DNA of 58,027 nt from Pseudomonadales bacterium (lineage in GTDB: Bacteria > Pseudomonadota > Gammaproteobacteria > Pseudomonadales > JANQJO01): contig JANQJO010000100.1 of NCBI GenBank assembly GCA_028281605.1, forward strand, positions 1 to 58,027, read 5' to 3'. The translations under genes and the position numbers were made by a program. How positions within the stretch are numbered: position 1 is the stretch's first letter; each line of letters starts with the position of its first letter. A model generated the notes under the pieces. It saw only the letters and a list, made by a program, of their open reading frames with translations, was not told the DNA's origin and searched no databases. Below, piece by piece: positions 1,455 through 58,027 of the stretch.

Positions 1455-1553
1455 GGAACGTGCGCGAAATAACTTTCACATTTATCACTTCTGAACTCGC
1501 TTTGCTCAAACACGCATCCGCTCTAAATGTTAAAGTTATTTCGTACACGTTCC
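1455..1553 (-). mobile_element. Family 1 palindromic MITE-like element, copy A (99 bp)
   Basis: Arms of about 29 bp (GGAACGTGCGCGAAATAACTTTCACATTT / AAATGTTAAAGTTATTTCGTACACGTTCC) around the conserved core TGAACTCGCTTTGCTCAAACACGCATCCGCTC. Abuts the yraN stop codon. Flanks TTT/CTA do not match. Confidence 0.85.
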
Positions 1554-1943
1554 CTACCAAACATTTGCTTCAAATGCATTCTGAACCCACTGGATTTGTG
1601 AACTTTGCATCACACGGCTTTGATTGGGTTCAACCGCAATCACATCAAAACGAATCAGCACGTTGTCATATAAAAAACCGTGCTTTTGTAAAAAAAACTG
1701 TGCCGTTTTTATAATTTTACGTTGTTTAGAACGGGTCACTGCTTCTAATGGACAACCATGCTGATTTTGCCGACGATATTTCACTTCCACAAAAGCTAAC
1801 TCTTTACCATCTTGAATAATCAGGTCTATTTCACCAAGACGACAACTAAAATTACGATGTAAGATTTTAACTTTGCGATCAAGCAGATATTTTTCAGCTA
1901 GTTGTTCATAGATATTTCCTATCTTCTTATTTGAAGTTAACAT
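1554..1943 (-). CDS. yraN: YraN family protein (UPF0102)
   Basis: GEIDLI, LAFVEVKYR and RFDVIAV motifs; position between lpoA and diaA. Confidence 0.92.
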   Translation of the reverse strand: MLTSNKKIGNIYEQLAEKYLLDRKVKILHRNFSCRLGEIDLIIQDGKELAFVEVKYRRQNQHGCPLEAVTRSKQRKIIKTAQFFLQKHGFLYDNVLIRFDVIAVEPNQSRVMQSSQIQWVQNAFEANVW

Positions 1944-1972
1944 GAGGACGCTCTATAATAAAGTGTTTTGCT

Positions 1973-4003
1973 TTATAATGGACTTGCACTGGTATTATTT
2001 CCATCCTCAAAAGCACCTAAACCTGGCTCAATCCTTACTGGTTCACCTGTATCAAAAGTTGCCCATAGGCTATAACGCTCAATACGCTGACCGGGCCCCA
2101 TGCTCAACTGACCCGTTAAACCCTCCACAATGACCTCAGGTGTCTGGATCAATAACTCCAAACGAGGAAACAATTGGTATGCATCTATACCCAACGCGAA
2201 CAGACGTGGTAATCTCACAGTATCACGTGAAACCACATCCGTAAAAGCATGGTTGGGATCTAAAAACCAGGGAATGTCAGTAAATTCTATACCATTTAAG
2301 TCCTTATCTAAACCAGGATTATTTTTACCTGAAAAAATATGTGAAACTGAGAAAACTGGTAAATCACCAGCAAAATAAAAATTTAATGCCGGTTTAAGTT
2401 GGCGTGCTTGCTTAGCATTACCAAATACTACGATAAAATCCAGATCTTGACGTCGTCTCGGAACAAATTCAACAGAACGACCTAAAGTCTGACGAATGCG
2501 CCTATGTCTGGCTTCACTTTCATGCACATTCAGTAAATACTTGATGGTCTTTGAATAATCTTTGTTACCACCATAGCTGCTGGTAGCTCCTAACATCCCT
2601 CCCAGGTCGGTCCACTTATCACCAAAAGCTTTTAACATTCTATAACCCCAATCTGTATCAGGATAAACCACAGCACCAACATGATACCCCTCCATCGCCG
2701 CACGCTCAGCAATTTGTCGAGCTTCATCTTCGGCTGCTAAACCAAACTGTATTAAATTTGGTAGTGGTTCTGCTGGTGTTAAATACTGTGCCTCTGCTTT
2801 TTGCGCTGAAGGCTCTAATTGCGCTGAAGGCTCTAATTGCGCTGAAGGCTCTAACTTTTTTATTTTCTGGCCTGTTTGCTGGCCTGTTTGCTGAATTGAA
2901 GGTTCTACCCAATAATTTAGCGCTAAAGTTGGTACAGACAGTGTTTCCAGTCGACTTAATTCTCTCACACGGTCTTTTTCTAAAGGACCAATCACTACAG
3001 CTGCGCCTGCATCAACGGCTTGTTGATACAATGCTACAGTTTTTACAGTTGTGTCAGTGTCAATAATGAGTAACTCTGGAACCGATTGATTGCTGGCTAA
3101 AGCCGCATAATAACCCGCCAAAAAACCTCGTAAAACGGTTTTACCCGCTTCACCATAGCGTCCTTCACTAGGCAATAGTAAAGCCACTTGCTTAGGCTGA
3201 TTAATAACAGCTTTTTTTAGTAACTCTAAAGATACAGGCAAGTGCAAATGTGCTGGATGCTGAGGCCAACGGCTTAACCAAGCATCTATGGCTCGCACTT
3301 GTGCTTGTAAGCTATTAGTTTCTTGTTTACCCACCAAAGCAAGGTTAATCCAACCTTTTAGGTCTTCATGAGGGACCACATCTTTAAGCGCCATTAGCGT
3401 TGTGGTTGTGAGCCGACCTAAACTACGCCAAATAGCCTCATTGTTCTCTGCAATTTCCCGTTCTGAGGGCAACTGAGGACCCAGCATAACTCGCTCACGT
3501 GCACTAGCTAAATATTGGCCCGCATTTTCGTGCGCCAGGGCTCTTAACCGCTTTATTTTAATTTGCTCAGCAACTCGAGCAGAACCAATAATATCAAATA
3601 AATCATAGCGGTTTGTAGTTAACACTGATACGGCTTCTTGTGCTTTATTATCTGCTAAGGCCAACTCTGCCATTGCTATGATATAAAGAGGCTTTATCGC
3701 AGCTGGCAATTGCTTAAAATTAACTTCAGCTAGCAAGCTAGCGGCTGTTTCTATATCAGGATCAGATTGCCTAACATAAGCAACTACAGCCTTTAATAAC
3801 CACTGACTTTGTTTTAACCCAGAGCTTTTCCTAGCTCTGGCCAACAACTGTCGAGCCGTTAAAGGCTCAGCACCAGCAGGCAAAATCGCTTGTGGCATAG
3901 GTCTAACATCAGCATTGCGTATATCTGCGCTAGGCTGACAACCACCTAGCATTAAAACAATAAGAAAAAATAAAAATGCTCTTAAACTACATATCATAAT
4001 CAA
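1973..4003 (-). CDS. lpoA: Penicillin-binding protein activator LpoA (LppC family lipoprotein)
   Basis: Lipobox LGGC; WPQHPA, VALLLP, IGPLEK, FGLAAEDEARQ and RLFALGIDAY motifs; divergent from rsmI. Confidence 0.9.
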   Translation of the reverse strand: MIMICSLRAFLFFLIVLMLGGCQPSADIRNADVRPMPQAILPAGAEPLTARQLLARARKSSGLKQSQWLLKAVVAYVRQSDPDIETAASLLAEVNFKQLPAAIKPLYIIAMAELALADNKAQEAVSVLTTNRYDLFDIIGSARVAEQIKIKRLRALAHENAGQYLASARERVMLGPQLPSEREIAENNEAIWRSLGRLTTTTLMALKDVVPHEDLKGWINLALVGKQETNSLQAQVRAIDAWLSRWPQHPAHLHLPVSLELLKKAVINQPKQVALLLPSEGRYGEAGKTVLRGFLAGYYAALASNQSVPELLIIDTDTTVKTVALYQQAVDAGAAVVIGPLEKDRVRELSRLETLSVPTLALNYWVEPSIQQTGQQTGQKIKKLEPSAQLEPSAQLEPSAQKAEAQYLTPAEPLPNLIQFGLAAEDEARQIAERAAMEGYHVGAVVYPDTDWGYRMLKAFGDKWTDLGGMLGATSSYGGNKDYSKTIKYLLNVHESEARHRRIRQTLGRSVEFVPRRRQDLDFIVVFGNAKQARQLKPALNFYFAGDLPVFSVSHIFSGKNNPGLDKDLNGIEFTDIPWFLDPNHAFTDVVSRDTVRLPRLFALGIDAYQLFPRLELLIQTPEVIVEGLTGQLSMGPGQRIERYSLWATFDTGEPVRIEPGLGAFEDGNNTSASPL
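2801..2893. repeat. In-frame tandem repeats inside lpoA
   Basis: 18-bp unit TTGCGCTGAAGGCTCTAA x3 (2801-2854, LEPSAQ x3) and 12-bp unit CTGGCCTGTTTG x2+ (2867-2893, QQTG x2). Confidence 0.9.
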
Positions 4004-4122
4004 CTTAACACCACCAATGATTGCTATTAAGTGTTCACTGCTAATACAATACTACCGAGTAATCGTGTTCATAAAAACCGTATTTTAAGAAATTAAGCCG
4101 CTATGGTATCATAAAAAAGCTA

Positions 4123-4965
4123 ATGGTAATGAATTCGGGAAAGTTGTATGTTATATCAACACCTATAGGTCATCTGGGTGACATCACCTTGCGCGCCATC
4201 GAAATCTTACAGGATGTCGACTTGATTTTAGCGGAAGACACGCGTCATAGTCACAAGCTCATGAAACACTACAATATAAGCACACACCTTCACTCTTTTC
4301 ACGAACACAACGAAAAAAAGCTGCTACCTCAATGCCTGGCGTGGCTTGAAGCAGGCAAAAATCTTGCGCTGATCTCAGATGCTGGCACCCCTTTAATCAG
4401 CGACCCTGGGTTCTCTTTGATACGTGCTGTCGCTGACGCTCAATATACAATTTTACCTATTCCTGGCCCATCTGCTTTTGTTGCAGCTCTCAGTGTCTCA
4501 GGTTTGCCTGTGCATGACATTAGATTTTTAGGTTTTCTGCCAGCAAAAGCAGTTGCACGCAATAAGTTGATTACCTCACTTAAAGACAGTAACAGCACCT
4601 TGATTTTCTACGAATCTCCACACCGACTGTTGGATACTTTAACCGATTTAGAACGCATCCTAGGAAAAGATAGACAAACTGTTCTAGCCCATGAAATGAC
4701 AAAAACCCATGAGTCTTTTCAGCGTGGCAGGCTTGAGCAGTGTCGAGCAGCTTTACAAAGCCAAGCACACAATCCTAAGGGTGAGTGGGTTATTTTAATC
4801 GCTGCTCAGTCTAAACCTTCCTCTAATCAAGTCAATATAAGCCTTGAAGCAGAAGCATTATTGGCATTACTTAAACCTCATGTCTCCACTAAAATTGCTG
4901 CGCAAATTGCATCAGATTACCTTGGGGGTAGCAAAAGAGTTTACTATAATTTTTTACTCAATTAA
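4123..4965 (+). CDS. rsmI: 16S rRNA (cytidine1402-2'-O)-methyltransferase
   Basis: LYVISTPIGHLGDIT, AEDTRHS, SDAGTPLISDPG and FYESPHR motifs. Confidence 0.95.
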   Translation: MVMNSGKLYVISTPIGHLGDITLRAIEILQDVDLILAEDTRHSHKLMKHYNISTHLHSFHEHNEKKLLPQCLAWLEAGKNLALISDAGTPLISDPGFSLIRAVADAQYTILPIPGPSAFVAALSVSGLPVHDIRFLGFLPAKAVARNKLITSLKDSNSTLIFYESPHRLLDTLTDLERILGKDRQTVLAHEMTKTHESFQRGRLEQCRAALQSQAHNPKGEWVILIAAQSKPSSNQVNISLEAEALLALLKPHVSTKIAAQIASDYLGGSKRVYYNFLLN

Positions 4966-4998
4966 AATAATTTTTGTTTGTATGAAGCGTCTCTCTAG

Positions 4999-5097
4999 GG
5001 AATGGTCACGAAATAACTTTAACATTTGGGGCGGATGTTTGTCTGAGCGAAGCGAGTTCAGCAGCGGAAAATGTTAAAGTTATTTCGTGACCATTCC
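4999..5097 (+). mobile_element. Family 1 MITE-like element, copy B (99 bp)
   Basis: Perfect 29-bp inverted arms GGAATGGTCACGAAATAACTTTAACATTT; core GCGGATGTTTGTCTGAGCGAAGCGAGTTCAGCAGCG; TAG direct repeat on both sides. Confidence 0.88.
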
Positions 5098-5232
5098 TAG
5101 TCGACTGTTTTATCTATTATTTTATTTTTCGAGCTGAACTGATGAAAAAAATGATGAGAACAAACACACAAGCCCAGAAAAAACATAAAAGTTAATAGCT
5201 GCTTTCTCAGAAATATAACCGCTGAAAGTTAA

Positions 5233-7614: not shown

Positions 7615-7829
7615 ACGCTACTATCCAATTTTACCAATTTTAATTTTTATCATTACTTCAAGTAGATATTCCTTTAAACCAATCAAATTATTACGAAACT
7701 TCAGACAGGCACTCAAAATTCTGTAGACCAGTTTGGCACAGCAAATTTTGAGCATCAATTAGAAACAGCGGGGTTTTTACACAAGTACAACAAAAGCCCA
7801 CTTAGACCGAGACAGGTCAATATAAATTA

Positions 7830-10980: not shown

Positions 10981-10991
10981 TCAATAAAACA

Positions 10992-11025: not shown

Positions 11026-11027
11026 AT

Positions 11028-20263: not shown

Positions 20264-20362
20264 GGAATGGTCACGAAATAACTTTAATATTTGGAGCGGA
20301 TGTTTGTCTGAGCGAAGCGAGTTCAGCAGCGGAAAATGTTAAAGTTATTTCGTGACCATTCC
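20264..20362 (+). mobile_element. Family 1 MITE-like element, copy C (99 bp)
   Basis: Nearly identical to copy B (2 differences seen); ATA direct repeat on both sides. Confidence 0.88.
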
Positions 20363-21711: not shown

Positions 21712-21812
21712 GGTAAGGCACAGGAAATAATCTACCCATTGTTCTCTTCTGAACTCGCTGTGCTCAAACATGCATCCGCTCAAAATGGGTAGATTATTTC
21801 CTGTGCCTTACC
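21712..21812 (-). mobile_element. Family 1 MITE-like element, copy E (101 bp, alternative arms)
   Basis: Perfect arms GGTAAGGCACAGGAAATAATCTACCCATT / AATGGGTAGATTATTTCCTGTGCCTTACC around the same core; TTA direct repeat on both sides. Confidence 0.88.
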
Positions 21813-34447: not shown

Positions 34448-35353
34448 ATGCTGGCTGACATGCTGCTGTTTTTATCAAACAATGCAGCAGCTTTTTACAC
34501 AGTAACCTTTATTTTTGGGCTGGTGGTAGGCAGTTTTCTCAATGTCGTCATTCACCGTATTCCTATCATGTTAGAACGTTCTTGGTATGAAAGCGCCAAA
34601 GCCTTTTTACTAGAAGAGAATGCCAACAACCAAATACAAGCAAGCAAATACGACAAACGAATCTTTAACTTACTTTATCCCAATTCATATTGCCCTCACT
34701 GCAAACAACCAGTCAAGGCTTGGCAAAACATTCCATTGATCAGCTACGGCCTATTACTAGGTAAATGCCAGCATTGCAAAACACCTATTTCTCTACGCTA
34801 CCCTCTAATTGAACTTATAGCTGCTCTACTCTGCCTGGCTATTACTTTACGCTTTGGTTTAACCCTCGAGTCTGCTTTAAGCTTAATGTTCACCTGGACT
34901 TTGTTATGTTTATCTGTGATTGATTACGATCACCATCTATTACCAGATCAATTGACCTTACCTTTACTCTGGGTGGGCTTATTGGCCAGTACACAATCTT
35001 TATTTACTACTCCCACAGATGCTATCTTAGGTGCCAGTTTGGGTTATCTAAGTTTATGGTCAGTCTATTGGATTTTCAAATTAATCACAGGAAAAGAAGG
35101 TATGGGATACGGAGATTTCAAATTACTTGCGGCACTAGGCGCATGGTGTGGCTGGCAAGCACTGCCCAGTATTATTGTCTGGTCTTCTTTAGTTGGCGCC
35201 ATCATTGGCATTGGCTTAGTTGTGTTATACAAACGTGACCGTAACAAACCTATTCCTTTTGGACCATATTTGGCTATAGCCGGTTGGCTATATTTTTATT
35301 TCGGGGACAATATCGATATTCAGCAGTGGATGCTGCTACCGGGCACATATTAA
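34448..35353 (+). CDS. pilD: Prepilin peptidase/N-methyltransferase
   Basis: GSFLNVVIHR, two CxxC pairs, GMGYGDFKL and PFGPYLA motifs. Confidence 0.96.
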   Translation: MLADMLLFLSNNAAAFYTVTFIFGLVVGSFLNVVIHRIPIMLERSWYESAKAFLLEENANNQIQASKYDKRIFNLLYPNSYCPHCKQPVKAWQNIPLISYGLLLGKCQHCKTPISLRYPLIELIAALLCLAITLRFGLTLESALSLMFTWTLLCLSVIDYDHHLLPDQLTLPLLWVGLLASTQSLFTTPTDAILGASLGYLSLWSVYWIFKLITGKEGMGYGDFKLLAALGAWCGWQALPSIIVWSSLVGAIIGIGLVVLYKRDRNKPIPFGPYLAIAGWLYFYFGDNIDIQQWMLLPGTY

Positions 35354-35452
35354 GGAACGAGCACGAAATAACTTTAGCATTTGTCGCTCCTGAACTCGCT
35401 TTGCTCAAACATGCATCTGCTCTAAATGTTAAAGTTATTTCGTACATGTTCC
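35354..35452 (-). mobile_element. Family 1 MITE-like element, copy F (99 bp)
   Basis: Same arm type and core as copy A; TAA direct repeat on both sides, the left one being the pilD stop codon. Confidence 0.88.
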
Positions 35453-37948: not shown

Positions 37949-40900
37949 TCACAACTGTTCAGGACAATTAAACCCAGCCAGCTTATTCGTTTTAAACATT
38001 TCAAATGGATTGTGAACACTCAAAGCTGTTAAATACAGCTTAACGACACGTGCTTCAACCTGCAAATCCACACTAAACTGTTCGGCACTTTCACCTGGTC
38101 TGAAAGCTGCTTTCTGAAAAAAATGAAACAAAGCCCATGGCCCCTCTTTTACCTGCAAAGTAACAGACTTGTTATCAAGTAAATTCAACTTCAACACAAT
38201 ACCCAGCTCTGGCTTTTGTCCAGGCCAAGTCAATGAATACATTCTCGGCGCGCTGTGATCGTATTGAATCACTTGCCCCTCTATATTCATCCAAAGACTG
38301 CCTATATCTTTATCCATTTTTAAAGGCGTCAACCTAAAGCTCACACTGGCTTGCCCTTCATTAAAAGGAAAAAAAGCACGTCTAATCTCTTGCGCTTGTT
38401 GAAAAAATGCCAGGGCATTCTCAGATAAGTTAAGCCCATCTTTAGCAGCAGAGGCTTTATTACTCCAAGGATCAAAAGCTGTCTCCACATAGGAAATCAA
38501 ATATTCATTAAAAAAACTGTTAAGCATTCCTGAATAAGAAAAAAATTGATTAAAATCGTTAAGCTGCACATAGTTTTTACTGTTCTTTACAAAAGGATAG
38601 CGGCCCATTACTGTACCTTTACAAAACCGTAACGACTCTGCTTGCCACTGTGTATTAATCTGCGCAAGCCTGCCACTGTTAGCAATCGCTACTGTTCGTT
38701 CAGACAAGGAGTCTAATAACCCTTTGACAAAAGCCGGTGCCTCATCGCTTCCCAACTTTAATTGAGTCGCTAAATGCTCACCTTCTCTTACAATGGGTTC
38801 TGGAATGCTCGTACCCGCTCCCTTTTCAAGTAAAACTCTATCAAAATACTTTTGTAATTCTCCAAACGACCCTAACAACGTATCCAACTGTGCTGGCTGA
38901 TCTTGATCATTTTGAACAAAACTATCTAAGTCCATAAAGTTACGACTAACACCTTCATGAAATCTTTGTACAGGCTGAGTTGGATAATACTCATCAATTG
39001 TATCGTAACTTAATACACCTTCTGCCCACTTATCAAAACTGGTCAGTTGAGTTTCATTTCGTACAGCCTTTAAGAGTTTAAGCAAAGGAGAATTTTCTGT
39101 ATCAGAAACCAATGCCAACATCTCTTTAGCTTGCTGTGGATTAGTCACAGGTGCTAACACCGTATCTTCTAGTAAGCTTCTATAATTATTTACATACTCT
39201 TTGAAATAAAGCTTCTCAAGCTCAACAAAAGCTTGCTGATAAACAGATTCTTTTGAAAAAAGACTTGTATCATATAAAACCCACTGTCTCTCTTTCAATA
39301 GCTCACGCACCTGACCCGGAGCTTCTGAGAAAAAAAGACGATAGCCTTTCTTTTGTGAAAATAATGCGGAAATACCTTGTCTTAAACTCGCACCACTTTG
39401 TCTCACAAACACTTTGGTCGCATCCAACTCTCCTGCCACTGAATAAACTGAAAACTCAGGTACACTCATATGCTTTAACTGGTGTTCTAAGTTTTTCTTA
39501 ACATGCCCATAAAGCCATTGTTCATCAGTCTCATCATTCAGCAAACCCGTACGTATTTGTTCAATTAAAGTATCGTTTATATGTACAATAGGCCGACGAG
39601 CACTATAAGCAACACTCAAACGTTTTAAATCTTGTTCAGACATAAGCTGGCTTACACGGCTAGAGTTCTGAAAAAAATTCAATATGAAATTTGCATCGTA
39701 ATACTGATTTAAACCAAGCATTAAATAAGCCTTTAAAGCTTCATAACGTGCCTGTACGGTTATTTGTTCATCTTGTAAATGATCTTCTAAATACCGCTTT
39801 ACCTGGGGAAGTTTAAAATAAAACAACAAGTTTTCATAAAAATACTGTACTGCATCAGCAAGCTTATTGTATTGAGCAGGGTGCCAAGCACGAGCAAGAC
39901 CGTTACCTGCTTGCGTTGCTTCAAGGTCAGTCAACTGAAGGTTTACTGATCGCAGCCAAGCAACAACATCCTGCTCTGAACTGTTTGATTTTTCTGAAAA
40001 ATGCAACCATTCAGATTTAGAACTTTCGACCCATCGATCAAATTGCTCAATACGCTCTACCTGAGAAAGATAATGCCATATCCACACACACACACTCAAA
40101 CAAGAGATACTCAAAAATACAGCACAAGCACCATAACGCAACCGATGCCTATGGCGCTCGAGCCTAGGGTTTACTCCCACTAACCCCGCTTCTTTAAAAA
40201 TGACTTTTTTATATAAGTCATGTATAAAATAGCTTTTGTTAAATGCCTCCAGTGAAGTACATTTCGTTTGAGCAAACTCAGAACGTACAGGGGCCTGTTC
40301 GATGAACCGATCAAAAGATGTAGCTTCTTGAGTCGAGCTAATAAAATAAACACCTCTTAAAGATAATTCAGTCGCATCTTTCACACCCTTCTCATTAACC
40401 TCATTAACAAAAATATCTCGTAAAAAGCGATTCAGCTTGACTTTATGCACAGCCAATTGCTGTGGAAAACCGAAAATCTTACTTCGTTTTTTTTCATCAG
40501 GCTCATCATGTAAACGTGTACAAGTGCATTGATTTAAACGCTCAATGAGTAAATCAAACTCTCTGCTAAAAGCCTGTACGGCTAACTCTGTCTCTTGCTC
40601 TTTACCAGCCTGATTAAACGTTACACCCCACACCTGTTGTCTTTGCTCAGCACTTAAATTCTCAAAAAATTCGACGAAACCAAACAGCAAATCCAATTTA
40701 GTGACTAATACATACACGGGCAAATGCGTACCAAAGGAGTATCTAAGTTCTTGCATACGCTGCTTAATTTCATAGGCCTGCTTTAAACGTTCAGCCTGCG
40801 ACACATTGACTATATCCATAATATTAACAGTCAGCACCACACCATTAATGGGACGTCGACGCCTATGTTTACGTAACAACTTTATCAAATACAACCATTC

Positions 40901-41485
40901 TTTTTTATCTGTTTGTTGATCACGATCTTGTAAAACATAACGCCCAGCCGTATCAATCAAAACCCCACCTTGAGCAAACCACCAATCGCAGTAAAGCGTG
41001 CTGTCCACGGCTTCCGATACCGCCGTGCTGCAACGTCTCTCAAGTGGAAACTCAAGACCACTATTCATTAAAGCCGTAGTTTTACCAGAGCCAGTTCGAC
41101 CAATCACAAGGTACCAGGGTACATCATAAAGGCTTTTGTTTTTAAACAGGCTAGGTTTCAAAGCACGAATACCTGCTTCAAAGTGAGAGGTCATGGTTTT
41201 AATCCCTGGACTGTGTGCATCCCCTCTCAAAAACGCTTGCAACCATTGTAATAGATGACGCCCACCAGCAAGCTCACTAAGCCTACGCCAAAAATTTGGT
41301 AAAAATAATGAAAGACCAACAATCAAAACCAGCACCGCTCGTGCGACGAAAGATTTTAGCGGTTCATACTCACCAAAAGAAAAGTAAGGGCCTGCCAGCA
41401 AAATAAATAACGCTAACAACAAAAAGCCCAGTGTTTTAAAAAACCAGGGATTAATAAAAATAGCCAGTGTTTTTTTTAACATCAC
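37949..41485 (-). CDS. tssM: Type VI secretion membrane subunit TssM/IcmF
   Basis: N-terminal TMs; PWYLVIG.TGSGKTT, CDWWF, DTAGRY, PINGV, TKLDLL.GF, RGVYF and GPWALF motifs. Confidence 0.9.
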   Translation of the reverse strand: MMLKKTLAIFINPWFFKTLGFLLLALFILLAGPYFSFGEYEPLKSFVARAVLVLIVGLSLFLPNFWRRLSELAGGRHLLQWLQAFLRGDAHSPGIKTMTSHFEAGIRALKPSLFKNKSLYDVPWYLVIGRTGSGKTTALMNSGLEFPLERRCSTAVSEAVDSTLYCDWWFAQGGVLIDTAGRYVLQDRDQQTDKKEWLYLIKLLRKHRRRRPINGVVLTVNIMDIVNVSQAERLKQAYEIKQRMQELRYSFGTHLPVYVLVTKLDLLFGFVEFFENLSAEQRQQVWGVTFNQAGKEQETELAVQAFSREFDLLIERLNQCTCTRLHDEPDEKKRSKIFGFPQQLAVHKVKLNRFLRDIFVNEVNEKGVKDATELSLRGVYFISSTQEATSFDRFIEQAPVRSEFAQTKCTSLEAFNKSYFIHDLYKKVIFKEAGLVGVNPRLERHRHRLRYGACAVFLSISCLSVCVWIWHYLSQVERIEQFDRWVESSKSEWLHFSEKSNSSEQDVVAWLRSVNLQLTDLEATQAGNGLARAWHPAQYNKLADAVQYFYENLLFYFKLPQVKRYLEDHLQDEQITVQARYEALKAYLMLGLNQYYDANFILNFFQNSSRVSQLMSEQDLKRLSVAYSARRPIVHINDTLIEQIRTGLLNDETDEQWLYGHVKKNLEHQLKHMSVPEFSVYSVAGELDATKVFVRQSGASLRQGISALFSQKKGYRLFFSEAPGQVRELLKERQWVLYDTSLFSKESVYQQAFVELEKLYFKEYVNNYRSLLEDTVLAPVTNPQQAKEMLALVSDTENSPLLKLLKAVRNETQLTSFDKWAEGVLSYDTIDEYYPTQPVQRFHEGVSRNFMDLDSFVQNDQDQPAQLDTLLGSFGELQKYFDRVLLEKGAGTSIPEPIVREGEHLATQLKLGSDEAPAFVKGLLDSLSERTVAIANSGRLAQINTQWQAESLRFCKGTVMGRYPFVKNSKNYVQLNDFNQFFSYSGMLNSFFNEYLISYVETAFDPWSNKASAAKDGLNLSENALAFFQQAQEIRRAFFPFNEGQASVSFRLTPLKMDKDIGSLWMNIEGQVIQYDHSAPRMYSLTWPGQKPELGIVLKLNLLDNKSVTLQVKEGPWALFHFFQKAAFRPGESAEQFSVDLQVEARVVKLYLTALSVHNPFEMFKTNKLAGFNCPEQL

Positions 41486-47187: not shown

Positions 47188-47286
47188 GGAACGTACACGA
47201 AATAACTTTAACATTTGTCACTCCTGAACTCGCTTTGCTCAAACACGCATCCGCTCTAAGCGTTAAAGTTATTTCATGCACGCTCC
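47188..47286 (-). mobile_element. Family 1 MITE-like element, copy G (99 bp)
   Basis: Copy A-type arms and core; CTA direct repeat on both sides. Confidence 0.87.
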
Positions 47287-47499: not shown

Positions 47500-50400
47500 A
47501 TGGATAACCCCAGACTTATTATCAATCAGACTCGAACAAACCCACGACAGGGTTCAGATGAAGCCTTACCCCCCAGCACGACTGTTCTCGCAAAAGTAAG
47601 CTCCGACCCTATAAAACCAATAAAAAGAGCATACCATACATTTTGCTCACATATGAGAGGACCAAAATCATGGATCAAAACCTTCAAAAATGCTCACCAA
47701 CGCCTACGATACACAACTGAAACGCGCGTTCTCAGAGCCGTATTAAAAAACAAAAAAAATCACCAAAATTTTGCTATCTCCAACTTCTTAACCAACAAAC
47801 CAGAACTAACAAATATACACCCAAAATATCTATCAAAACTACTTACATACGCCATAAAAAACAATGATGCAAACATTGCTTCTCTTATAATAACCAAGAC
47901 TGAACTGAAATTGCCACAAACTGCTAATGACCTCATCAGTTTATTAAACTTACTGGCCACGCACAAAAAAATACAAGCCATACAAGCTACTTTGAATAAA
48001 AGTGATTTGTCACATTTATTAGAACTAAATCTCCTAGACAGCATCACTCGTGATACAATATACGAATTAAAACTAGAAAAGTCATCAACAACAGCCTTAG
48101 AAGAAATTGTAAAAACAAGTTCAAATGATCACGAAAAAAAAATCGCAAGTAAAATTCTTGCATTCAGAGGCATAGCATCAAAACAAAGTTTTAGCTCAGT
48201 TAAGGATCATATAGAAGCTTTCCTTAACACTGAAGACACCACATTCAACACTAAAGACATACAAACTAAAAAGACCCTATTAATCTCTGCAATAGAAGAA
48301 ACAAATCCAGAAGCACTAAAGTATTTATTAAATAGGGGAGCAGACTTATTTACTCAAGATTTCGAAAATAAAAACGCTTTATTTTACATTGAGAAAAAAA
48401 AACAGCTACTCGCATCAAAAGAAATTAGAGAAACTTTAACAGCAATATTAGAAGAAAAAATAAAAACAATATATGAAACACCAAACCAACGAATAGGCTG
48501 CCTAATAGACCACCTAAAAAACCTAAATAAATTATGTGAAATTTGCTTTGTATCTGCTTTAAAGCATCAAGATACTAGAAATCTACAATATTTATTAAAC
48601 ATTATTACTTCAAAACAAGAAATTTTCAGCAAAGAAACTGGTTTAAAAATTTTAACCCACACCTACCGAACCCAAAATATCAATATTATCAACCTGGTAC
48701 AGGAAAAAAGGCTTAATTTTATACTTAACTTAGAAAACATAAAAGGGACTTCCCTCAAAATTAAAAGTTTACCCGACCTCGACATATTAGATCTTTTAAA
48801 AATAACTGGATTAATAGAAGCTAGCCGAATACCCGACACAGATCAAATGGAATTCTTTTTAGCAGAACCATATAATAATCAAAACCACACAGCTATCATA
48901 CAAGTTAAAATAGCGCTATTAACCGATGTGTGCACACGTGGCGATAACAGACTATTAAGAATATTTATCAAACAATCCAATTTTATTTTTAACTCAGATA
49001 CAGTAAAAGCAGCTTACAAAGAAATTAAAAGGCACATATCATCCAACCCCGACTTCACCAACCTTACTAGCATAACACAATGCTGTGATCAACTTATCCA
49101 AGCTGGATTAAAGCAATCGATTATGGAAGGCAATATAGAAAACACAAGATTTTTTATAGAAAAAAAAACCGATCATAAAGTCAGTCTATCTAGAAAATTT
49201 CAATACCAACTTTTAATACTAGCAATCAACAGTAAAAACAATGCTACAGTAGAAACTTTACTAGCAAGCCCTCTTCGCCACATCAGAGATAAAGAAATAT
49301 TACAGAAAGCTAGCCAAAAAAACACCACTAAAGAGATAAAAGAGACAATCGGTGTGTTTAGTACGGACTCTTTCAACGACTTGCGAACAGCAATTAAAGA
49401 GAATAACACAATTAAATTTCATAATCTTTATACTCTATTCATCAATAACACACCAAAAAGGACTGCAATAGCTACAGCACTACTACACACAGCCTTAGCC
49501 TACAAAGTTGATGACGATATCATCATGGAACTTATCAAATATGGTGTCAATGCAAATTGGTATTGTTATAACAAAACACCTTTGATAATGGCCATTGAAC
49601 AGGGGAAATGGAAAGTCATGAATCAATTACTTGCCAAAGGAGCTGATGCCTCTCTTCGCGACAAAAAATATGATTATACTCCTTTATATTACATTTTAGA
49701 CTTAGATGAAATCGACACTACAAAGGCTTTCACCTCTTTTCTAAAACACAGCCCAACAACATTACACGACAATTTGACACTAGAGGTAGAAATTACACTC
49801 TACAATTACCTTCTGGGCAATAAAAACATAACTCAACGAGAAGAAAAAATAGCGGCTTTACTAAAAATTCCGCACGTTCAATTGAGTTCTACACAAAATG
49901 CTCATGACCCTATCACTGCCATATCGTACTCTAAAATCAAAACAAAATTAGATCAATACACTCAATCTAACACCCCAACAAACACCAGTAACATCCTTAA
50001 AGAAACGTGGAATCTTATATTTGAAGAAAAAATACCTGAAAGTATAATGGAATCAAATTCTTTTGAAACAAGCGTTGTTGAACTTGAACAAGCTCTTAAT
50101 AAAAAAACGCCAAAGACGGGAAATATAGAACAACTGAAAAGTTTTTTCACTGTCATGTTCTACTATCACACAAGCCCACACGCATCGAAAAAGGCCATAC
50201 AATTCATTGAGCAAACATGGCGAATGATTCAATGCATTGAAACAGACCCAGAAATTCTACAGCACTTATTTTTACATGAAAATAATCATTCAATGAATAA
50301 AGAATTACTAAAAGAAACATGTATTGAAAGTTTTATCAAATCCATAAGCAGCATACATATACATTATGATGCATATAACAAAAAAACATTCCAAATTTAT

Positions 50401-50850
50401 TGCATAGACGGCCAAATAGGCAGAATTTGTTCAACCTTTACAGGCATTTTCAAGGGCTTTGAGCTAAACAGCCTAGAGCTGTTAAATAACAGCATTCTAA
50501 ACCTCATCCATCAAAAAGCAGAAGAATATTTTCAAAATCATAAAGATCAGAAACAACTCTTAGAGCATTTAGAAAAACAGAAAAATCAGGCAACAACACA
50601 AACTGATAAAGATAAGTTAGAAAATATCAATAAACAGCTACAAGGCTTAAATCAAAAGCTTTTTAAATACATTGAAGCTGCCATTATAGAACAATACTCA
50701 AACGATCAAACTCAATCTGAAAGCCCTGACAATAAATTGATAAGGCTCTGCGTTAATGCACTCATCGGCAAACATCTTTCTGAAAATGGCTACTTTATAT
50801 ATAACGAAGAAGAAACAGACATATTATTGACAGATAATATATCCCTATAG
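47500..50850 (+). CDS. Large ankyrin-repeat protein, putative effector
   Basis: Ankyrin motifs (KTLLISAIEE..LLNRGAD; KTPLIMAIEQG..LLAKGAD; YTPLYY); very A-rich; no signal peptide. Confidence 0.8.
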   Translation: MDNPRLIINQTRTNPRQGSDEALPPSTTVLAKVSSDPIKPIKRAYHTFCSHMRGPKSWIKTFKNAHQRLRYTTETRVLRAVLKNKKNHQNFAISNFLTNKPELTNIHPKYLSKLLTYAIKNNDANIASLIITKTELKLPQTANDLISLLNLLATHKKIQAIQATLNKSDLSHLLELNLLDSITRDTIYELKLEKSSTTALEEIVKTSSNDHEKKIASKILAFRGIASKQSFSSVKDHIEAFLNTEDTTFNTKDIQTKKTLLISAIEETNPEALKYLLNRGADLFTQDFENKNALFYIEKKKQLLASKEIRETLTAILEEKIKTIYETPNQRIGCLIDHLKNLNKLCEICFVSALKHQDTRNLQYLLNIITSKQEIFSKETGLKILTHTYRTQNINIINLVQEKRLNFILNLENIKGTSLKIKSLPDLDILDLLKITGLIEASRIPDTDQMEFFLAEPYNNQNHTAIIQVKIALLTDVCTRGDNRLLRIFIKQSNFIFNSDTVKAAYKEIKRHISSNPDFTNLTSITQCCDQLIQAGLKQSIMEGNIENTRFFIEKKTDHKVSLSRKFQYQLLILAINSKNNATVETLLASPLRHIRDKEILQKASQKNTTKEIKETIGVFSTDSFNDLRTAIKENNTIKFHNLYTLFINNTPKRTAIATALLHTALAYKVDDDIIMELIKYGVNANWYCYNKTPLIMAIEQGKWKVMNQLLAKGADASLRDKKYDYTPLYYILDLDEIDTTKAFTSFLKHSPTTLHDNLTLEVEITLYNYLLGNKNITQREEKIAALLKIPHVQLSSTQNAHDPITAISYSKIKTKLDQYTQSNTPTNTSNILKETWNLIFEEKIPESIMESNSFETSVVELEQALNKKTPKTGNIEQLKSFFTVMFYYHTSPHASKKAIQFIEQTWRMIQCIETDPEILQHLFLHENNHSMNKELLKETCIESFIKSISSIHIHYDAYNKKTFQIYCIDGQIGRICSTFTGIFKGFELNSLELLNNSILNLIHQKAEEYFQNHKDQKQLLEHLEKQKNQATTQTDKDKLENINKQLQGLNQKLFKYIEAAIIEQYSNDQTQSESPDNKLIRLCVNALIGKHLSENGYFIYNEEETDILLTDNISL

Positions 50851-50970
50851 CGGTTTTCAGAATGGTTAGATGTAGGCGCCGACAAGTGAGAGCCGCTGAG
50901 TGTATAAATAATACATGATGCGGTCGATCGAGGAAGGCAACAACCATTAACCTTTCTGAAAGCCGCTATA
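50846..50970 (+). mobile_element. Family 3 ERIC/Correia-like element, copy 2 (~125 bp)
   Basis: Arms TATAGCGGTTTTCAGAATGGTTA / TAACCTTTCTGAAAGCCGCTATA; core GAGTGTATAAATAATACATGA...GGCAACAA. Its first bases provide the TAG stop of the ankyrin gene. Confidence 0.78.
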
Positions 50971-51069
50971 TAACTCAATGGCGGCATCCAAAATAAATAT
51001 CGAATTATTCTGTATTTCTCTATAATCGAGTCAAAGGGGCATCGCCCATCATATTTACTTTACTTCCTC

Positions 51070-51900: not shown

Positions 51901-51904
51901 TAAT

Positions 51905-54900: not shown

Positions 54901-56059
54901 AATCTATCTGCTCTACTTGTAAGGTAACCTCTGCAGTATCTGTCAAAAAAGGCAAGCCTTCTCCCTTTAAAAAAAGAGTATCAATAGCAATCGTAGAATC
55001 ACTCAAATCAAGCGCTTGAATATTGTTAAACCCAAGTTCCCAATCATCCTCTAAATTCATTTCCCATACAAAATCTGTACTCAACCGATTAATGTGCTCT
55101 ATCAGCGCAGAAGATACCGAATGCTTTACAATAAAATCAAATAAAGTAGCCTTGCCACTCATCCTACGCAACCTAGATTTTTCAAACTCTCCCCAAGCCG
55201 TTAAATTCATATCAAAATTTGTTATTTCCATCTCACCAAATTGGCTATTTTGAAATAAAAAGCCTAAATCAGTTCGATCAAAATTCACATAAAAAAGCCC
55301 TTCCCAAGAACCTGGAGATAACAAACGACCTCTAAATACCGACTGCAATGAAAAACTAACGGGTCTATCTTTTAACAATTGAACATTACTGTGAACATAA
55401 TACTTTTCCGCCACCTGAGAAAGTGCAATTTGCTTGACTTGCACATGTTGATTGTAATGCTCTAGCTCCATCTGCAAATCTATATTTTGTAAAATCAAGC
55501 CTCGCTTTTCAATCAAGTGATCAATCATAGACACCAAGTAAGTAAGTGCCTTCTCTTGCTCCGAATGCTCTGAAGCTTTTTTTGATTGTCCCACAGACAA
55601 TTGATCCAACCCTGGTATCAGGGTCGTTTTTCCCTGCTGACTGACCCAATGTAAATTTAAACCACTCAAATGTAAAAAACTCAAACGCGGCTCAAGGTCA
55701 AGCAAAGTTTCAAACACATCCAACCCGATGTGACAAAACTGCACAACAAATTCAGGTTCATGATCAACATCAACGCCACTGACTGCACTGGGCTTTGAAT
55801 ATATTTCAATCTGCTGCAGCGACAAAGATGGCCATAAAAAATGCCAATGACCTTCAATTAATCCAATCGAAACAGGTTGGCCTATAGAATCGGAAAGCCA
55901 TGCCTCAATTTTGTTTTTATTTTGCCCTACCAAATCAACCAAATGTCTCCCCAAAGAAACATATATAGCCATAAATATCAAACAAACAATCAAAACAACC
56001 CAAACCGTATTAACTACGCCATATAGGGCCTTACTGGAAAGTCCTGTGCTGTTTTTCAT
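51905..56059 (-). CDS. yhdP: YhdP family AsmA-like phospholipid transporter
   Basis: 1384 aa with an N-terminal TM anchor and C-terminal RRMQLDFSDV..GLAFD..V.GDWLDP; rng-yhdP-nit synteny. Confidence 0.88.
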   Translation of the reverse strand: MKNSTGLSSKALYGVVNTVWVVLIVCLIFMAIYVSLGRHLVDLVGQNKNKIEAWLSDSIGQPVSIGLIEGHWHFLWPSLSLQQIEIYSKPSAVSGVDVDHEPEFVVQFCHIGLDVFETLLDLEPRLSFLHLSGLNLHWVSQQGKTTLIPGLDQLSVGQSKKASEHSEQEKALTYLVSMIDHLIEKRGLILQNIDLQMELEHYNQHVQVKQIALSQVAEKYYVHSNVQLLKDRPVSFSLQSVFRGRLLSPGSWEGLFYVNFDRTDLGFLFQNSQFGEMEITNFDMNLTAWGEFEKSRLRRMSGKATLFDFIVKHSVSSALIEHINRLSTDFVWEMNLEDDWELGFNNIQALDLSDSTIAIDTLFLKGEGLPFLTDTAEVTLQVEQIDLKQVTNFMQQSHFLDLSVRELVKELAVTGIAESLQLNASVRNNHWQDFKVSTHFKSLNAQAIEPWPGVKNVSGFLSISPSGGLLQLATKASELTLSPFFRESWLADKLYGTVAWSFEKSGLSIRSGIIHMQTQDVHAQALLQLWYPQVTEAKKMLNPQLETLVSLYDGQGEKASLYLPIKPVSKDFVAWFDQSVQGGFLENANILFRGPIKPERYLEKTFLMEYEIEKGEFEFLPEWPRVKNAKMTVLQEGRQTFVEIQKADINNAQVSKGFIKIPFYERGKIPYLHLDATFFSDASNGIDFLRRTPLRKHVAGFIDNVAVQGPMNIDLKLVIPLRKKPKEKLAVKADVLVTLEDSAASFKSWQLDLSALEGEFAYKTQQGLSSKGWRAKVLGHNIVGKVSTDATVKGVTKTQVQFFGQVEPTVLENWLKQPIFSFVSGAIDYQAELGLYAIQGSNSERSIPNYVRVYSSLKGTTLSLPKPLTKPPQKPLQTSVQLTLAETRELDIQAENTFAASLKFKPERLESIYLHFGDKKVKSKIHPGVTVTGQLEQVDYDQWKNFYIQYQQVSKKMFERFEKVTQSADFEGIEVSGDKKYRFIRDLTGVVLDIERLNFPTLSLNQVDLQLMSFDEKWHLTLQSEEIVGSMRIPLVYLGVLDRLDWPLMPEQTLFDKYFNQSPIDLELWSLTLPQLAQLKKDFAKNLLMPNQKKPQEISEQQSSILPWSQLSPKWVPPMTINIRNIQLAENDWGAWLLATHVVEDGVEIKKINAHFKDLHVKGKGFWRLQKAGPVTYFMGDISSKDVEKTMVRWGFAPTVSSEKASLVANVKWPGAPLDFAFDRLNGKLAVHVDDGTLLKLDPRTSSVRVVGLLNFETLSRRMQLDFSDVLSKGLAFDVLSGAFEIRETILSTNSFKLKGPSAHFEVKGKVFLDTQSIDQEMVVTIPITRNLVLPAAATGGLPAATAAYVIDKAIGKQLNKLTTLKFEVKGDWLDPKITRKRRF

Positions 56060-56094
56060 CTTACTCTTTTTTGTCCCTTTCTTTAATCAATGCG

Positions 56095-57606
56095 TTACAT
56101 TAACACAACATCATAATGTTCTGGGTGATAAAGCATTTCCGCCTGAAAATTAATTGTTTTACCAATACATTTTGCCAAATCAGCCACATTAGATGACTCT
56201 TTGTCCAGTAATTGACCAATCACGTCCTCAGAGGCTATAACCAAATAACCTTGCGCATTGTATTGCGTTGAAACTCTTAAAATTTCACGATAAATTTCAA
56301 AACAAATACTCTCACAGGTTTTAATAAAACTTCTACCGTCACACATCGGACAAGGGTGACACAAAATTTTTTCTAAACTTTCTCTCGTACGTTTACGAGT
56401 CATTTCAACTAAACCAAATTCTGACATATTGGTAATTTTAGTTTTAGCATGATCCTTTTCTAAATATTTTTCAAAATGACACAATACTTGATGAATATGC
56501 TCAGCATCTTGCATATCAATAAAATCAATAATAATAATGCCCCCTAAATTACGTAACCGCAACTGACGAGCGATGACTGCTGAAGCCTCCAAGTTTGTTT
56601 TAAAAATCGTTTCCTCTAAACTCTTACTGCCAACAAAAGCACCTGTATTGATATCTACTGTAGTCATCGCTTCAGTTTGATCAATAACCAAATAACCACC
56701 TGATTTTAATTGCACTTCCCGATGCAATGCTTTATTGACTTCCTCTTCAATACTGTAAAGATCAAAAATGGGGCAAGATTCACTATAATATTCTATTTTA
56801 TCCGTCACCTTTGGCATAAAGTCTTTAACAAAATTTTTCACATTCTCATAAACTTCGTAATCATCAATACGCACACGTTCAATTTCAAATTTGGCCATGT
56901 CACGAATAACGCGTAAGAATAAAGGTAAGTCTGCATAAATGACATAACCTGGCTCAACCACATTCATTTTATTTTTTATTGAAACCCAACGCTTAAGTAA
57001 AAAATTTAAATCTCCCTCCAGAGCCTCTGCACTAACCCCCTCTGCTACAGTTCTAACAATAGCTCCCCTCAGTGGTGACACCCCTGTGTGCTCTTTTTGG
57101 ATGGCAAACATAGCGTTTTGTACGAGTGTTTTTAAACGTTCTCTTTCCTGTTCACATTCAATTTTTTGTGAAACACCGATATGATTGATACAAGGCATTA
57201 ACACTAAATATCGAGAGGGAATAGATAAATTGGTCGTTAAGCGTGCTCCTTTAGTACCCATCTGATCTTTGACAACTTGCACAACGATAGTTTGCCCTTC
57301 AGTCAATAATGATCGGATATCAGGAACAGCATTAGATTGATCTAACTCACTCGATTCTTCTCCCAAAAGACAGTTTGAAATATCACCAGCATGGATAAAC
57401 GCAGCCCGCTCCAAACCAATGTCCACAAACGCAGCTTGCATCCCCGGCAGCACTCTTAGCACCTTTCCTTTAAAGATAGCCCCAACTCGACTGCAATGCT
57501 GTTCACGTTCAATGAATATTTCTTGTACTATGCCATTCTCTAAAATTGCCACACGATTTTCAGCAAACGCACAGTTGATCAATATCTCTTCACTTGCTAC
57601 AAGCAT
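56095..57606 (-). CDS. rng: Ribonuclease G
   Basis: RVLPGMQAAFVDIG, KGARLTT, DQTEAMTTVDINTG and RLRNLGGIIIIDFIDM motifs; about 500 aa. Confidence 0.95.
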   Translation of the reverse strand: MLVASEEILINCAFAENRVAILENGIVQEIFIEREQHCSRVGAIFKGKVLRVLPGMQAAFVDIGLERAAFIHAGDISNCLLGEESSELDQSNAVPDIRSLLTEGQTIVVQVVKDQMGTKGARLTTNLSIPSRYLVLMPCINHIGVSQKIECEQERERLKTLVQNAMFAIQKEHTGVSPLRGAIVRTVAEGVSAEALEGDLNFLLKRWVSIKNKMNVVEPGYVIYADLPLFLRVIRDMAKFEIERVRIDDYEVYENVKNFVKDFMPKVTDKIEYYSESCPIFDLYSIEEEVNKALHREVQLKSGGYLVIDQTEAMTTVDINTGAFVGSKSLEETIFKTNLEASAVIARQLRLRNLGGIIIIDFIDMQDAEHIHQVLCHFEKYLEKDHAKTKITNMSEFGLVEMTRKRTRESLEKILCHPCPMCDGRSFIKTCESICFEIYREILRVSTQYNAQGYLVIASEDVIGQLLDKESSNVADLAKCIGKTINFQAEMLYHPEHYDVVLM

Positions 57607-57645
57607 ATGCCCTAACTGCTCTCTTATTTGTGTACTTTAAAATAA

Positions 57646-57807
57646 GGTAAGGCACAGGAAGTAATCTACCCATTGTTCGCTTCTAAACTCGCTGTGCCCA
57701 AACATGCATCCGCTCAAAATGGGTAGATTATTTACCGTGCAAATGCAATTTTCATCACCTGGGGTGACGCTTATTACATCGCTCATGGCTGTTTCCTGTG
57801 CCTTACC
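57646..57807 (-). mobile_element. Family 1 MITE-like element, copy H (E-type arms), interrupted by a family 2 element
   Basis: 162 bp = 101 bp (as copy E) + 61-bp insertion in the right arm; TAA direct repeat on both sides. Confidence 0.88.
57731..57791 (-). mobile_element. Family 2 61-bp hairpin element, copy 3 (nested)
   Basis: Inserted between GGGTAGATTA and TTTCCTGTGCC of copy H; the empty site is visible in copy E. Confidence 0.85.
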
Positions 57808-57932
57808 TAAAATGGAGTCTCTATACCCAACCTTTCATTTTACAATATAATCATAATCAAGCACGGCACTGATACAGTTTTTGGTGAAGCATTTCATTTT
57901 CACCCAATACACCGATATTGCTCAGTCCCTTA

Positions 57933-58027
57933 GGAGGTGTCCCAGAATAAAGTTTACAATGTGAGCGGATGCATGTCTGAGCGCAGCGAGTTCAGGAGCG
58001 AAGCTTGTAAACTTTATTCTGGGACAC
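57933..58027 (+). mobile_element. Family 1 MITE-like element, copy I (fourth arm type; cut by window end)
   Basis: Arms GTGTCCCAGAATAAAGTTTACAA / TTGTAAACTTTATTCTGGGACAC around core GAGCGGATGCATGTCTGAGCGCAGCGAGTTCAGGAGCGA; TTA on the left. Confidence 0.85.

Follow-up and report, generated by a model that had tools for sequence, protein, structure and literature searches.

A probable hairpin MITE family with a constant centre and varying paired arms in a Pseudomonadales genome

The dispersed palindromes described here are probably non-autonomous DNA transposons, that is, hairpin MITEs, with a core that acts in cis and a transposase of the IS5/Harbinger type that moves them in trans. They are small and non-coding, carry terminal inverted repeats, are bordered by target-site duplications and occur in many dispersed copies, as MITEs do. 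Their arms covary, and the same loop motif is found in other hairpin repeats. The constant part of the element is its middle, which is found again between unrelated arms in hosts whose GC content ranges from 37% to 69%. The first-pass annotation of this DNA had proposed an undescribed system; what we find instead is a recognisable MITE with target duplications.

Copies in the window

The window is the whole stretch of DNA that was analysed, 58,027 nt of contig JANQJO010000100.1 (C146 in our numbering). A core pattern derived from the eight copies of the first-pass annotation matched the window at 1493, 5031, 20296, 21751, 35392, 47226, 57685 and 57965, each time within one of those copies, and matched none of 100 dinucleotide-preserving shuffles of the window. 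The four arm sequences also read as they had been described: an A-like arm (copies at 1455, 35354 and 47188, all three decayed, by reading, with several arm mismatches each), GGAATGGTCACG... (4999 and 20264), GGTAAGGCACAGG... (21712 and 57646) and GGAGGTGTCCCAG... (57933). The strand given for each copy is the strand of the core GAACTCGCT....

1455..1553, + strand: A-type copy, 99 bp, decayed arms; flanks TTT / CTA, no clear duplication
4999..5097, - strand: B-type copy, 99 bp, near-perfect arms; TAG / TAG target duplication
20264..20362, - strand: B-type copy, 99 bp; flanks ATA / ATA
21712..21812, + strand: C-type copy, 101 bp; TTA / TTA target duplication
35354..35452, + strand: A-type copy, 99 bp; TAA / TAA target duplication
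47188..47286, + strand: A-type copy, 99 bp, decayed arms; flanks CTA / CTA
57646..57807, + strand: C-type copy; TAA / TAA duplication; right arm split by a foreign hairpin element
57734..57794, + strand: small inserted hairpin that belongs to an unrelated second repeat family and not to the MITE
57933..58027, - strand: D-type copy; left flank TTA; the contig end removes the last 4 nt

The copy at 57646 falls outside 99-101 bp: its right arm contains an unrelated 61-nt hairpin, so that the copy extends to 57807. Most complete D-type copies listed from the genome end in ...GGGACACCTCC, followed by TTA or TAA, so the family agrees with the first-pass prediction of CTCC and then TTA for the truncated copy at 57933. 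The copy at 4999..5097 folds as DNA with -30.7 kcal/mol (z -10.76). The left TAA of the copy at 35354..35452 is at the same time the stop codon of the ORF at 34448-35353. A tRNA scan of the window found none, and Pfam returned no transposase for the 10 of 34 window ORFs of at least 150 aa to which it was applied. The window had been described as free of transposases, and indeed six transposase Pfam families searched genome-wide gave no hit on this contig.

Copy number and target sites in the genome

Overall, the core matched the 3.65-Mb draft genome 151 times with at most two mismatches, and the reversed control did not match at all. With at most three mismatches there were 160 matches, 112 of them with full flanks. 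The elements have the tips GG...CC, and 57 of the 76 anchored copies measure 99-101 bp. The fixed length noted in the window holds within this clade but not among relatives, which range from ~109 to ~155 bp. Identical 3-bp flanks border 39 of the 76 anchored copies, when ~14 would be expected from the marginals. The flank pairs in these 76 copies are TTA/TTA in 19, TAA/TAA in 17 and mixed TTA/TAA in 4, that is, 36 concordant against 4 discordant pairs. The wider target context, C-TWA-G, is weak (C in 16/36, G in 15/36). The copies are intergenic: 4 of 112 overlap an ORF of at least 200 aa by more than 30 nt.

Left/right chimeras account for 6 of the 112 copies. The outer end of the A type is found as the border of other sequences as well, namely mini-palindromes, a MITE of ~150 bp (65 ends) and a 1128-bp element whose ORFs are ordinary. 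The D-type copies form a burst of near-identical elements. Many of the contig breaks in the assembly are due to these repeats and to a second MITE with which they have one end in common. A nested insertion at C36:22775 was considered as proof of mobility and rejected, as it is not clean. Contigs from the DNA sequencing runs, which break at the repeats, showed no empty site or polymorphic insertion.

Arms and centre

At least six arm types surround one common centre of ~41 nt. The arms are 27-29 bp long and were aligned as a helix of 28 arm pairs. For 12 copies from three genomes, 95.2% of the arm cells were paired, compared with 33-43% in slid controls. Two-sided compensatory changes appeared in 21 of the 28 arm pairs, a level reached by none of 500 shuffles, which bears out the earlier statement that each arm stays complementary to its partner. 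Within the genome, we counted 27 compensated cells (14 distinct variants by tally) against 35 one-sided ones. Private, mirror-image arm changes are many.

The centre is far better conserved than the arms across arm types, as had been claimed: discrete types differ from one another at 9-17 of 26 arm positions (35-65%) and at a median of 3-5 of 29 core positions. The types themselves are discrete for C, D, E and F, whereas A and B are a mutational continuum with a minimum distance of 1/26. In classical MITE families the ends are conserved and the interior drifts, and it is by the ends that such families are normally recognised. The first-pass annotation saw the reverse here, a fixed core with changing arms. 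The core is indeed constant across types, but the termini are not free: most arm types have in common the GG tip and a GAAATAA-like block at a fixed distance.

A different picture emerges inside the subfamilies, where the centre diverges at 75 of 1775 positions (4.2%) and the arms at 61 of 2106 (2.9%). Inserted copies decay neutrally, and the selection on the core that had been proposed does not act on them. Because decay within subfamilies is no slower in the centre than in the arms, the conservation of the centre between subfamilies suggests a need during propagation rather than a function at each site.

Relatives and the loop motif in other genomes

Carriers of the core are found in none of three genomes of the same family and in 1 of 37 of the same order. 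Exact core matches came from 4 other assemblies and 14 metagenome contigs, the latter including contigs of 61-69% GC with entirely different arms. Globally, the hosts of the motif span 37% to 69% GC, with the arms recoded to host composition; the conservation of the core across genomes is partly by construction, because the core was the query. One carrier genome, G019, was searched with its own arm pattern and gave mostly ~99-bp pairs. We read the patchy distribution among genomes as horizontal spread.

A sub-core of 19-20 nt, (G)AACTCGCTNNGCTCARACA, recurs in other Gammaproteobacteria, where it makes up the apical loop of larger hairpin repeats, with 9-34 copies in each of four other genomes and one in a fifth. 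Of 36 rows, 25 show it closed by a perfect 7-10-bp stem, and by tally the stems have 14 different sequences. These larger relatives occur as inverted pairs, often between convergent genes. ORFs over them matched no Pfam family, and the translation of a 315-aa ORF between two copies in G084 had, by inspection, no signs of a transposase. BLAST found no match to a D element among plasmids, nor to its core among E. coli genomes, and the core pattern had 0 matches in viral contigs.

We tentatively suggest, as a possibility that we hold to be rather less probable than its opposite, that the sub-core is the recognition loop of an undescribed Gammaproteobacteria hairpin-repeat system, here caught between IS5-like ends, and that the spread of the resulting MITE depends on the loop. 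If so, a conserved factor would read an unpaired loop atop a stem of free sequence, and mobilisation would be at least partly structure-guided: the loop would be recognised and the stem, of set length, cut at its foot. The larger relatives with several hairpins (in G195, G137, G084 and G418) would then be ancestral, either as a mobile element or as a non-coding RNA.

Search for a transposase partner

Arm pairs lying 300-4000 bp apart in the draft genome enclosed no transposase. Genes hit by DDE_Tnp_1, DDE_Tnp_1_2, DUF4096 and DUF772 have ends unlike the arms, and DDE_Tnp_4 had no hit. IS5-type genes are present (C17, C118, a fragment on C60, and others) and carry other ends. At contig ends we saw other IS ends, none of them arm-like, and further copies of the same arms at other loci led to no autonomous element. 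The check for a transposase with arm-matching ends, which the first-pass annotation had recommended, therefore came back empty in a draft assembly that contains no contigs under 3.5 kb. As the draft lacks contigs below 3582 bp and its contigs break ~95-99 nt into the repeats, a multi-copy IS would be missing from it.

GG and a GAA(A)TAA block are found both in the arms and in the IS5A ends of E. coli K-12; aligned to the IS5 ends of that strain, the arms score no better than shuffles (best fraction 0.04, most > 0.2). Since no autonomous partner was found, the assignment to IS5/Harbinger rests on the TWA duplication and the GG tips. Two other origins of the core were tried and rejected. As for a junction left by a deleted IS, solitary half-cores turned out to be truncated MITEs or chance matches, none of them flanking a gene. 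As for a piece of a host gene, short-word BLAST returned MITE remnants only.

Alternative explanations

A long hairpin with a conserved loop might also be the gene or cis-element of a structured RNA that works as a terminator, as a small RNA or in stabilising a 3' UTR. The compensatory arm changes would then follow from selection on RNA pairing, the arms covary strongly around a conserved unpaired loop, and elsewhere the loop motif tops multi-hairpin elements of which 19 of 31 instances lie between convergent genes, at their 3' ends. Against this, the orientation of the core is independent of the neighbouring genes (21 same and 23 opposite with co-directional neighbours, and no consistent trend in the other carrier genomes), the mismatches have no strand asymmetry (16 G.T versus 12 A.C), and the loop of inserted copies decays at least as quickly as the arms. 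The 3-bp target duplications and the burst of D copies are features of transposons. Rfam 15 at gathering score had 0 matches in the window and in 12 loci, so that the suggested comparison with Rfam produced no family for the core; a permissive search (E up to 10; one element and one G195 element) gave weak microRNA-like and JUMPstart chance hits only. We regard an RNA-level role as unlikely. The core might also have no function. The arm types could be recent derivatives of one MITE, with the centre shared by ancestry and horizontal transfer. Core variants do track arm types, as descent predicts, inserted copies decay neutrally, and the cross-genome set was ascertained by the core. Yet the arms of types C and D are close to random similarity with those of A/B (mean identity 0.60, shuffle baseline 0.52) while the centre stands at 0.85, the motif survives across the full GC range of its hosts with the arms recoded, conservation extends to linker bases that the query pattern did not include (TCGCTNCT ahead of the core and TC behind it), and the loop persists under the 14 different closing stems. 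A functionless core is thus quite improbable.

The remaining candidate is movement as REP/BIME-like or PATE-like units by a single-strand HUH (Y1) transposase, which would read the hairpin and loop and cut at the foot of the stem. Enzymes of this kind that read structure include the IS200/IS605 and REP-associated transposases, and a conserved loop on freely varying, compensated stems is what they use. The inverted pairs of the larger relatives resemble BIMEs, and the genome has a single Y1 transposase gene, at a contig end (C130:14-370). However, HUH transposition makes no target duplication, and the concordant TTA/TTA and TAA/TAA flanks represent a true one. Y1 had no hit in G019 and G137, two of the four other carrier genomes searched. 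The second repeat family, the 58-61-nt hairpin element, has 103 matches in the genome, is inserted after TTTA and extends into a longer unit at two contig ends; it looks a likelier candidate partner of the Y1 gene on C130 than the MITE. We give the HUH explanation very little weight.

A model for the spread of the elements

For the hairpin MITEs that we favour, we infer the transposase family, the correction of arm against arm and the cis-acting role of the core. The two 27-29-bp arms would serve as terminal inverted repeats around a ~41-nt unpaired centre. A DDE transposase of the IS5/PIF-Harbinger kind, supplied in trans, would most likely cut at the GG...CC tips, and insertion would take place at a TWA trinucleotide within a weak C-TWA-G context, with duplication of the trinucleotide. 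Folding of the palindrome into a hairpin or cruciform may allow one arm to be corrected against its partner. Copies may also recombine at two shared blocks, the GAAATAA-like arm motif and the core. Single inserted copies do not maintain the core; multiplication would be confined to copies whose core is intact, so the core would act in cis in mobilisation. It is most likely exposed as an apical loop, a putative binding site for the transposase or a host factor. The earlier suggestion that one cargo was captured between several IS-like end pairs is still a live reading: the outer end that bounds other inner sequences supports it, as does the core motif in hairpins of other genomes with unrelated arms.

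If the centre is cis-acting, a step in MITE mobilisation reads something besides the terminal repeats, and the protein responsible could be sought by way of the centre. How the two halves of a DNA palindrome are kept alike can be studied in the mirror-image arm changes, which form a natural data set.

Comparison with known systems

Literature searches by word and by sequence string (13-17-nt pieces of the core) returned no description of the core; supplementary catalogues (e.g. of PMC11602168) could contain it. MITE families seldom extend beyond one genus: the survey PMC11602168 gives 97.4% of 1.4 million bacterial MITEs as genus-specific.

In transposon features the elements resemble the IS5/PIF-Harbinger MITEs, Tourist-like in plants and IS5-derived in bacteria, which are likewise short, non-coding, dispersed and intergenic, with inverted repeats starting with GG and a 3-bp TWA duplication. 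A passage of PMC2213677 describes a 3-bp target duplication for PIF/Harbinger elements, and one in PMC12730594 groups IS5 with Harbinger and ISL2EU. The present family differs from these MITEs in that its interior is constant across arm types and genomes while the arms change in pairs, that no autonomous partner was found here, and that its arms do not resemble IS5 ends to a significant degree.

The Correia (NEMIS) elements of Neisseria, of ~100-150 bp, are similar, as generally described, in size, in their long inverted repeats, in their arm-variant subtypes and in having a functional middle site; they differ in their TA duplication, their sequence and their restriction to a single genus. REP/BIME units with their RAYT are short GC-rich palindromes with a GTAG tag and no target duplication, and the RAYT gene is flanked by repeats. 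Our elements are, like them, multi-copy extragenic palindromes, and the larger relatives form inverted pairs often between convergent genes, but there is no GTAG tag, the AT-rich ~28-bp arms start with GG, target duplications are present, and a Y1 gene does not consistently accompany them. Finally, attC sites and IS200/IS605 ends also conserve pairing and leave the paired sequence free. Unlike both, the elements here carry target duplications, and unlike attC sites, whose conserved boxes lie at the foot of the stem and whose tip varies, they conserve the tip and vary the stem.

Copies and target duplication of the hairpin MITE

A 29-nt core pattern derived from the copies listed in the first-pass annotation matched the window eight times, once for each of the eight copies reported there, and 0 times in 100 shuffles. 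The four arm sequences described for the window were likewise borne out on reading the copies. The window corresponds to contig C146 in the draft genome G000 (3.65 Mb, 40% GC, 162 contigs). In this whole draft, the core was found 151 times with at most two mismatches (77 forward, 74 reverse), and the reversed control gave 0 matches. With at most three mismatches there were 160 matches, of which 112 were flanked by 60 nt to either side and the remaining 48 lay near contig ends. Only 4 of these 112 main-family copies overlapped an ORF of at least 200 aa by more than 30 nt.

Arms could be aligned over at least 22 nt in 91 of the 112 copies, and anchoring on the GG...CC tips was possible in 76 of the 91. 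The length was 99-101 bp in 57 of the 76 anchored copies. The same three bases stood outside both tips in 39 of the 76, compared with about 14 expected from the marginals; flank pairs included TTA/TTA (19), TAA/TAA (17) and mixed TTA/TAA (4). This concordance reflects a genuine duplication of three target bases, TWA (TTA or TAA). The context of the duplicated TWA was weak, with C before it in 16 of 36 copies and G after it in 15 of 36. Folded as single-stranded DNA, one copy formed a stem of 29 bp closing a loop of about 41 nt (-30.7 kcal/mol, z -10.76). At window 35351-35353, TAA serves both as the stop codon of ORF 34448-35353 and as the left copy of the target duplication, so that the insertion fell exactly on the stop codon.

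Among the genes of the window are those for a TssM/IcmF-like protein of type VI secretion (37949-41485) and an ankyrin-repeat protein of 1116 aa (47500-50850). Taken with the coral-metagenome label of the best public DNA run, they suggest that the organism lives in association with a host.

Arm types share blocks and probably recombine

At least six arm types surround one centre in G000.

Arm types of the hairpin MITE in G000
Type A or B on both sides: 50 copies
Type D: 22 copies
Type C: 19 copies
Type E: 2 copies
Type F: 1-4 copies, depending on the criterion
Left/right arm chimeras: 6 copies (C86:40793, C108, C113, C115, C129:9240 and C157:14632; 0-based, core strand)
One arm missing or unrecognisable: 12 copies

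Arm types A and B intergrade, with a minimum distance of 1/26, and types C and D are discrete, differing at 9-17 of 26 positions from A/B and from each other. Across the 47 of 76 anchored copies that passed the filters for this comparison, the cores of differing arm types showed a median of 3-5 differences in 29. Most arm types have in common a GG tip followed at a fixed distance by a GAAATAA-like block. Type E carries the outer 19 nt of A with a different inner segment, and type F carries the inner segment of A/B with a different outer one; this mixing of segments indicates that the arms are built of blocks.

Five of the six chimeras were clear cases, with a core variant of the left arm's type, so the joint falls at the core's right-hand end, where the longest shared run is found. 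The chimeras suggest recombination between dispersed copies, possibly with genome rearrangements too, and copies of the hairpin MITE thus probably recombine at the blocks they share. Since such recombination could put a centre between new end pairs, the reading in the first-pass annotation, that one cargo was captured by several end pairs, may hold.

Paired change of the arms

Covariation was assessed on 12 copies: six from the window, one from elsewhere in G000, four from G019 (a carrier genome of the same order) and one from a metagenome contig. The arms keep their complementarity across types, as had been noted from the window: 95.2% of the arm cells were paired, and 21 of 28 arm pairs showed two-sided changes. 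None of 500 shuffles reached any of the five covariation measures, and pairing fell to 33-43% when the partner was slid by 1-3 columns. Compared with the subfamily consensus, 27 cells of the copies in G000 were compensated (by manual tally, 14 distinct variants) and 35 were one-sided. The youngest arm type, D, had six one-sided changes and no compensated ones, which fits mismatches arising first and being symmetrised later.

Other elements with A-type ends and the search for an autonomous partner

A separate MITE of G000, about 150 bp long, has the A-type outer end GGAACGAGCACGAAATAA joined to another inner segment. This MITE has 65 ends genome-wide; its complete pairs measure 150-159 bp in seven cases, 140-149 bp in one and 50-59 bp in one. 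The same outer end also bounds a 60-bp mini-palindrome and occurs in 16-bp mini-palindromes or remnants GGAACGTGCACGTTCC flanked by TWA. All separate elements with this end were flanked by TTA or TAA.

Further repeat sites in G000
C128:9846-10974: element with A-type ends, 1128 bp, TTA duplication, ordinary ORFs, one of which looks like an L,D-transpeptidase
C12:8641 and C143:23150: other A-type-end sites
Window 20604: solo A-type outer end
Window 57734-57794: second small repeat, also on C133, C67, C18, C118 and others

The second small repeat (about 58-61 nt, 103 genome matches) contains the hairpin CAATTTTCATCACCTGGGGTGACGAAAATTG. It is inserted directly after TTTA without obvious duplication, lies within main-family arms in several copies, and runs on into a longer unit at two contig ends. 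The sole Y1 (IS200-like) transposase gene of G000 is also at a contig end (C130:14-370). This repeat resembles a palindrome-associated IS200/IS605 derivative.

Arm pairs 300-4000 bp apart in G000 enclosed ordinary or unknown ORFs. The IS5-type transposase genes in the draft (C17, C89, C85, C118 and a fragment on C60) had other ends, and DDE_Tnp_4 had 0 matches. Repeats at contig ends included several other IS ends, none starting like an arm and then departing from the MITE. No partner was found in this draft, from which any collapsed multi-copy IS of 1-1.5 kb would be missing, given its smallest contig of 3582 bp. Contigs typically break off after 95-99 nt of a repeat. At least eight repeat ends other than those of the two MITE families recur at contig ends (for example TATAGCGGTTTTCAGAATGG..., CAGCGATTCAGAGTTC... 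and GTAAGCGTAAATAAATCC...), which implies that the draft lacks the bodies of many IS families present in G000.

Distribution of the core in other genomes

The core was absent from the three other genomes of the same family and present in one of 37 genomes of the order (G019, 18 matches). Scanned for the exact pattern, 185,579 species genomes gave 10 stretches in four assemblies (a Thiohalobacter MAG, two Gammaproteobacteria MAGs and a Francisellaceae MAG), and a metagenome scan gave 14 further ones. The arms around the exact core elsewhere were different every time and again self-complementary; on contigs of 61-69% GC the arms were GC-rich and the core was unchanged.

Of 400 sampled genomes of the class, seven more carried the core with at most three mismatches, keeping only its first 19-20 nt (the sub-core), with counts of 20, 34, 10, 9 and 1 in five of them. 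There the sub-core forms the apical loop of a hairpin, closed by a perfect 7-10-bp stem in 25 of 36 rows. These stems had 14 different sequences by manual tally; with the 24 offsets tried, random flanks are calculated to give such a stem in about 0.15% of rows. Larger multi-hairpin repeats of up to about 270 nt, with the sub-core in the apical loop, numbered 9-34 per genome in four of these five genomes.

Larger multi-hairpin repeats
Loci L040-L050 and L059-L098, in the carrier genomes G084, G137, G195, G418 and G203

These larger elements often form inverted (tail-to-tail) pairs, and convergent genes flank 19 of 31. Conserved internal segments on their two arms are mutually non-complementary. 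They matched no Rfam family, and their ORF-like frames matched no Pfam family. These elements show the loop motif to be older and more widespread than the MITE of the window. All relatives were retrieved with the core as query, which by itself accounts for part of the core conservation among them. That conservation is independently supported by conserved linker bases outside the pattern, by the consistent behaviour of free positions inside it, and by unrelated arm sets in one genome that have the centre in common. Literature searches of the main articles found nothing relevant with 13-17-nt pieces of the core and only general MITE papers by words.

Proposed selection on spread rather than on inserted copies

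Transition mismatches on the core strand were G.T in 16 cases and A.C in 12, and of the 44 cores situated between co-directional genes, 21 ran with the genes and 23 against them. Neither the mismatch balance nor the orientation fits a strand-specific RNA.

The first-pass annotation had proposed selection on the core. Between subfamilies and between genomes, the centre is indeed the best-kept part. Within subfamilies (39 copies, types A-D), however, divergence from the consensus was 75/1775 positions (4.2%) for the centre vs 61/2106 (2.9%) for the arms. Core-based collection of copies should mask core decay, and the centre still shows decay no slower than that of the arms, so inserted copies are without protection by selection. 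Overall, the earlier observation was confirmed, while its interpretation of the hairpin MITE was only partly supported. The simplest reading is that multiplication is limited to copies with an intact centre, in which case the centre would be a cis-acting requirement for the spread of the hairpin MITE.

Comparison with IS5 and PIF/Harbinger elements

IS5-family and PIF/Harbinger transposases yield a TWA duplication with GG tips. By eye, the IS5A ends of E. coli K-12 have the GG plus GAA(T/C)AAG block common to the hairpin-MITE arms; alignment of the arms to these ends gave scores not above shuffles. A 3-bp target duplication is described for PIF/Harbinger elements (PMC2213677), and a figure legend presents IS5 and Harbinger as kin (PMC12730594). 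Size, tips, duplication, intergenic placement and fold are the defining features of a MITE, and we file the element as a TWA-duplicating MITE. What is unusual for a MITE is the combination of a conserved centre, probably linked to propagation, with covarying arms.
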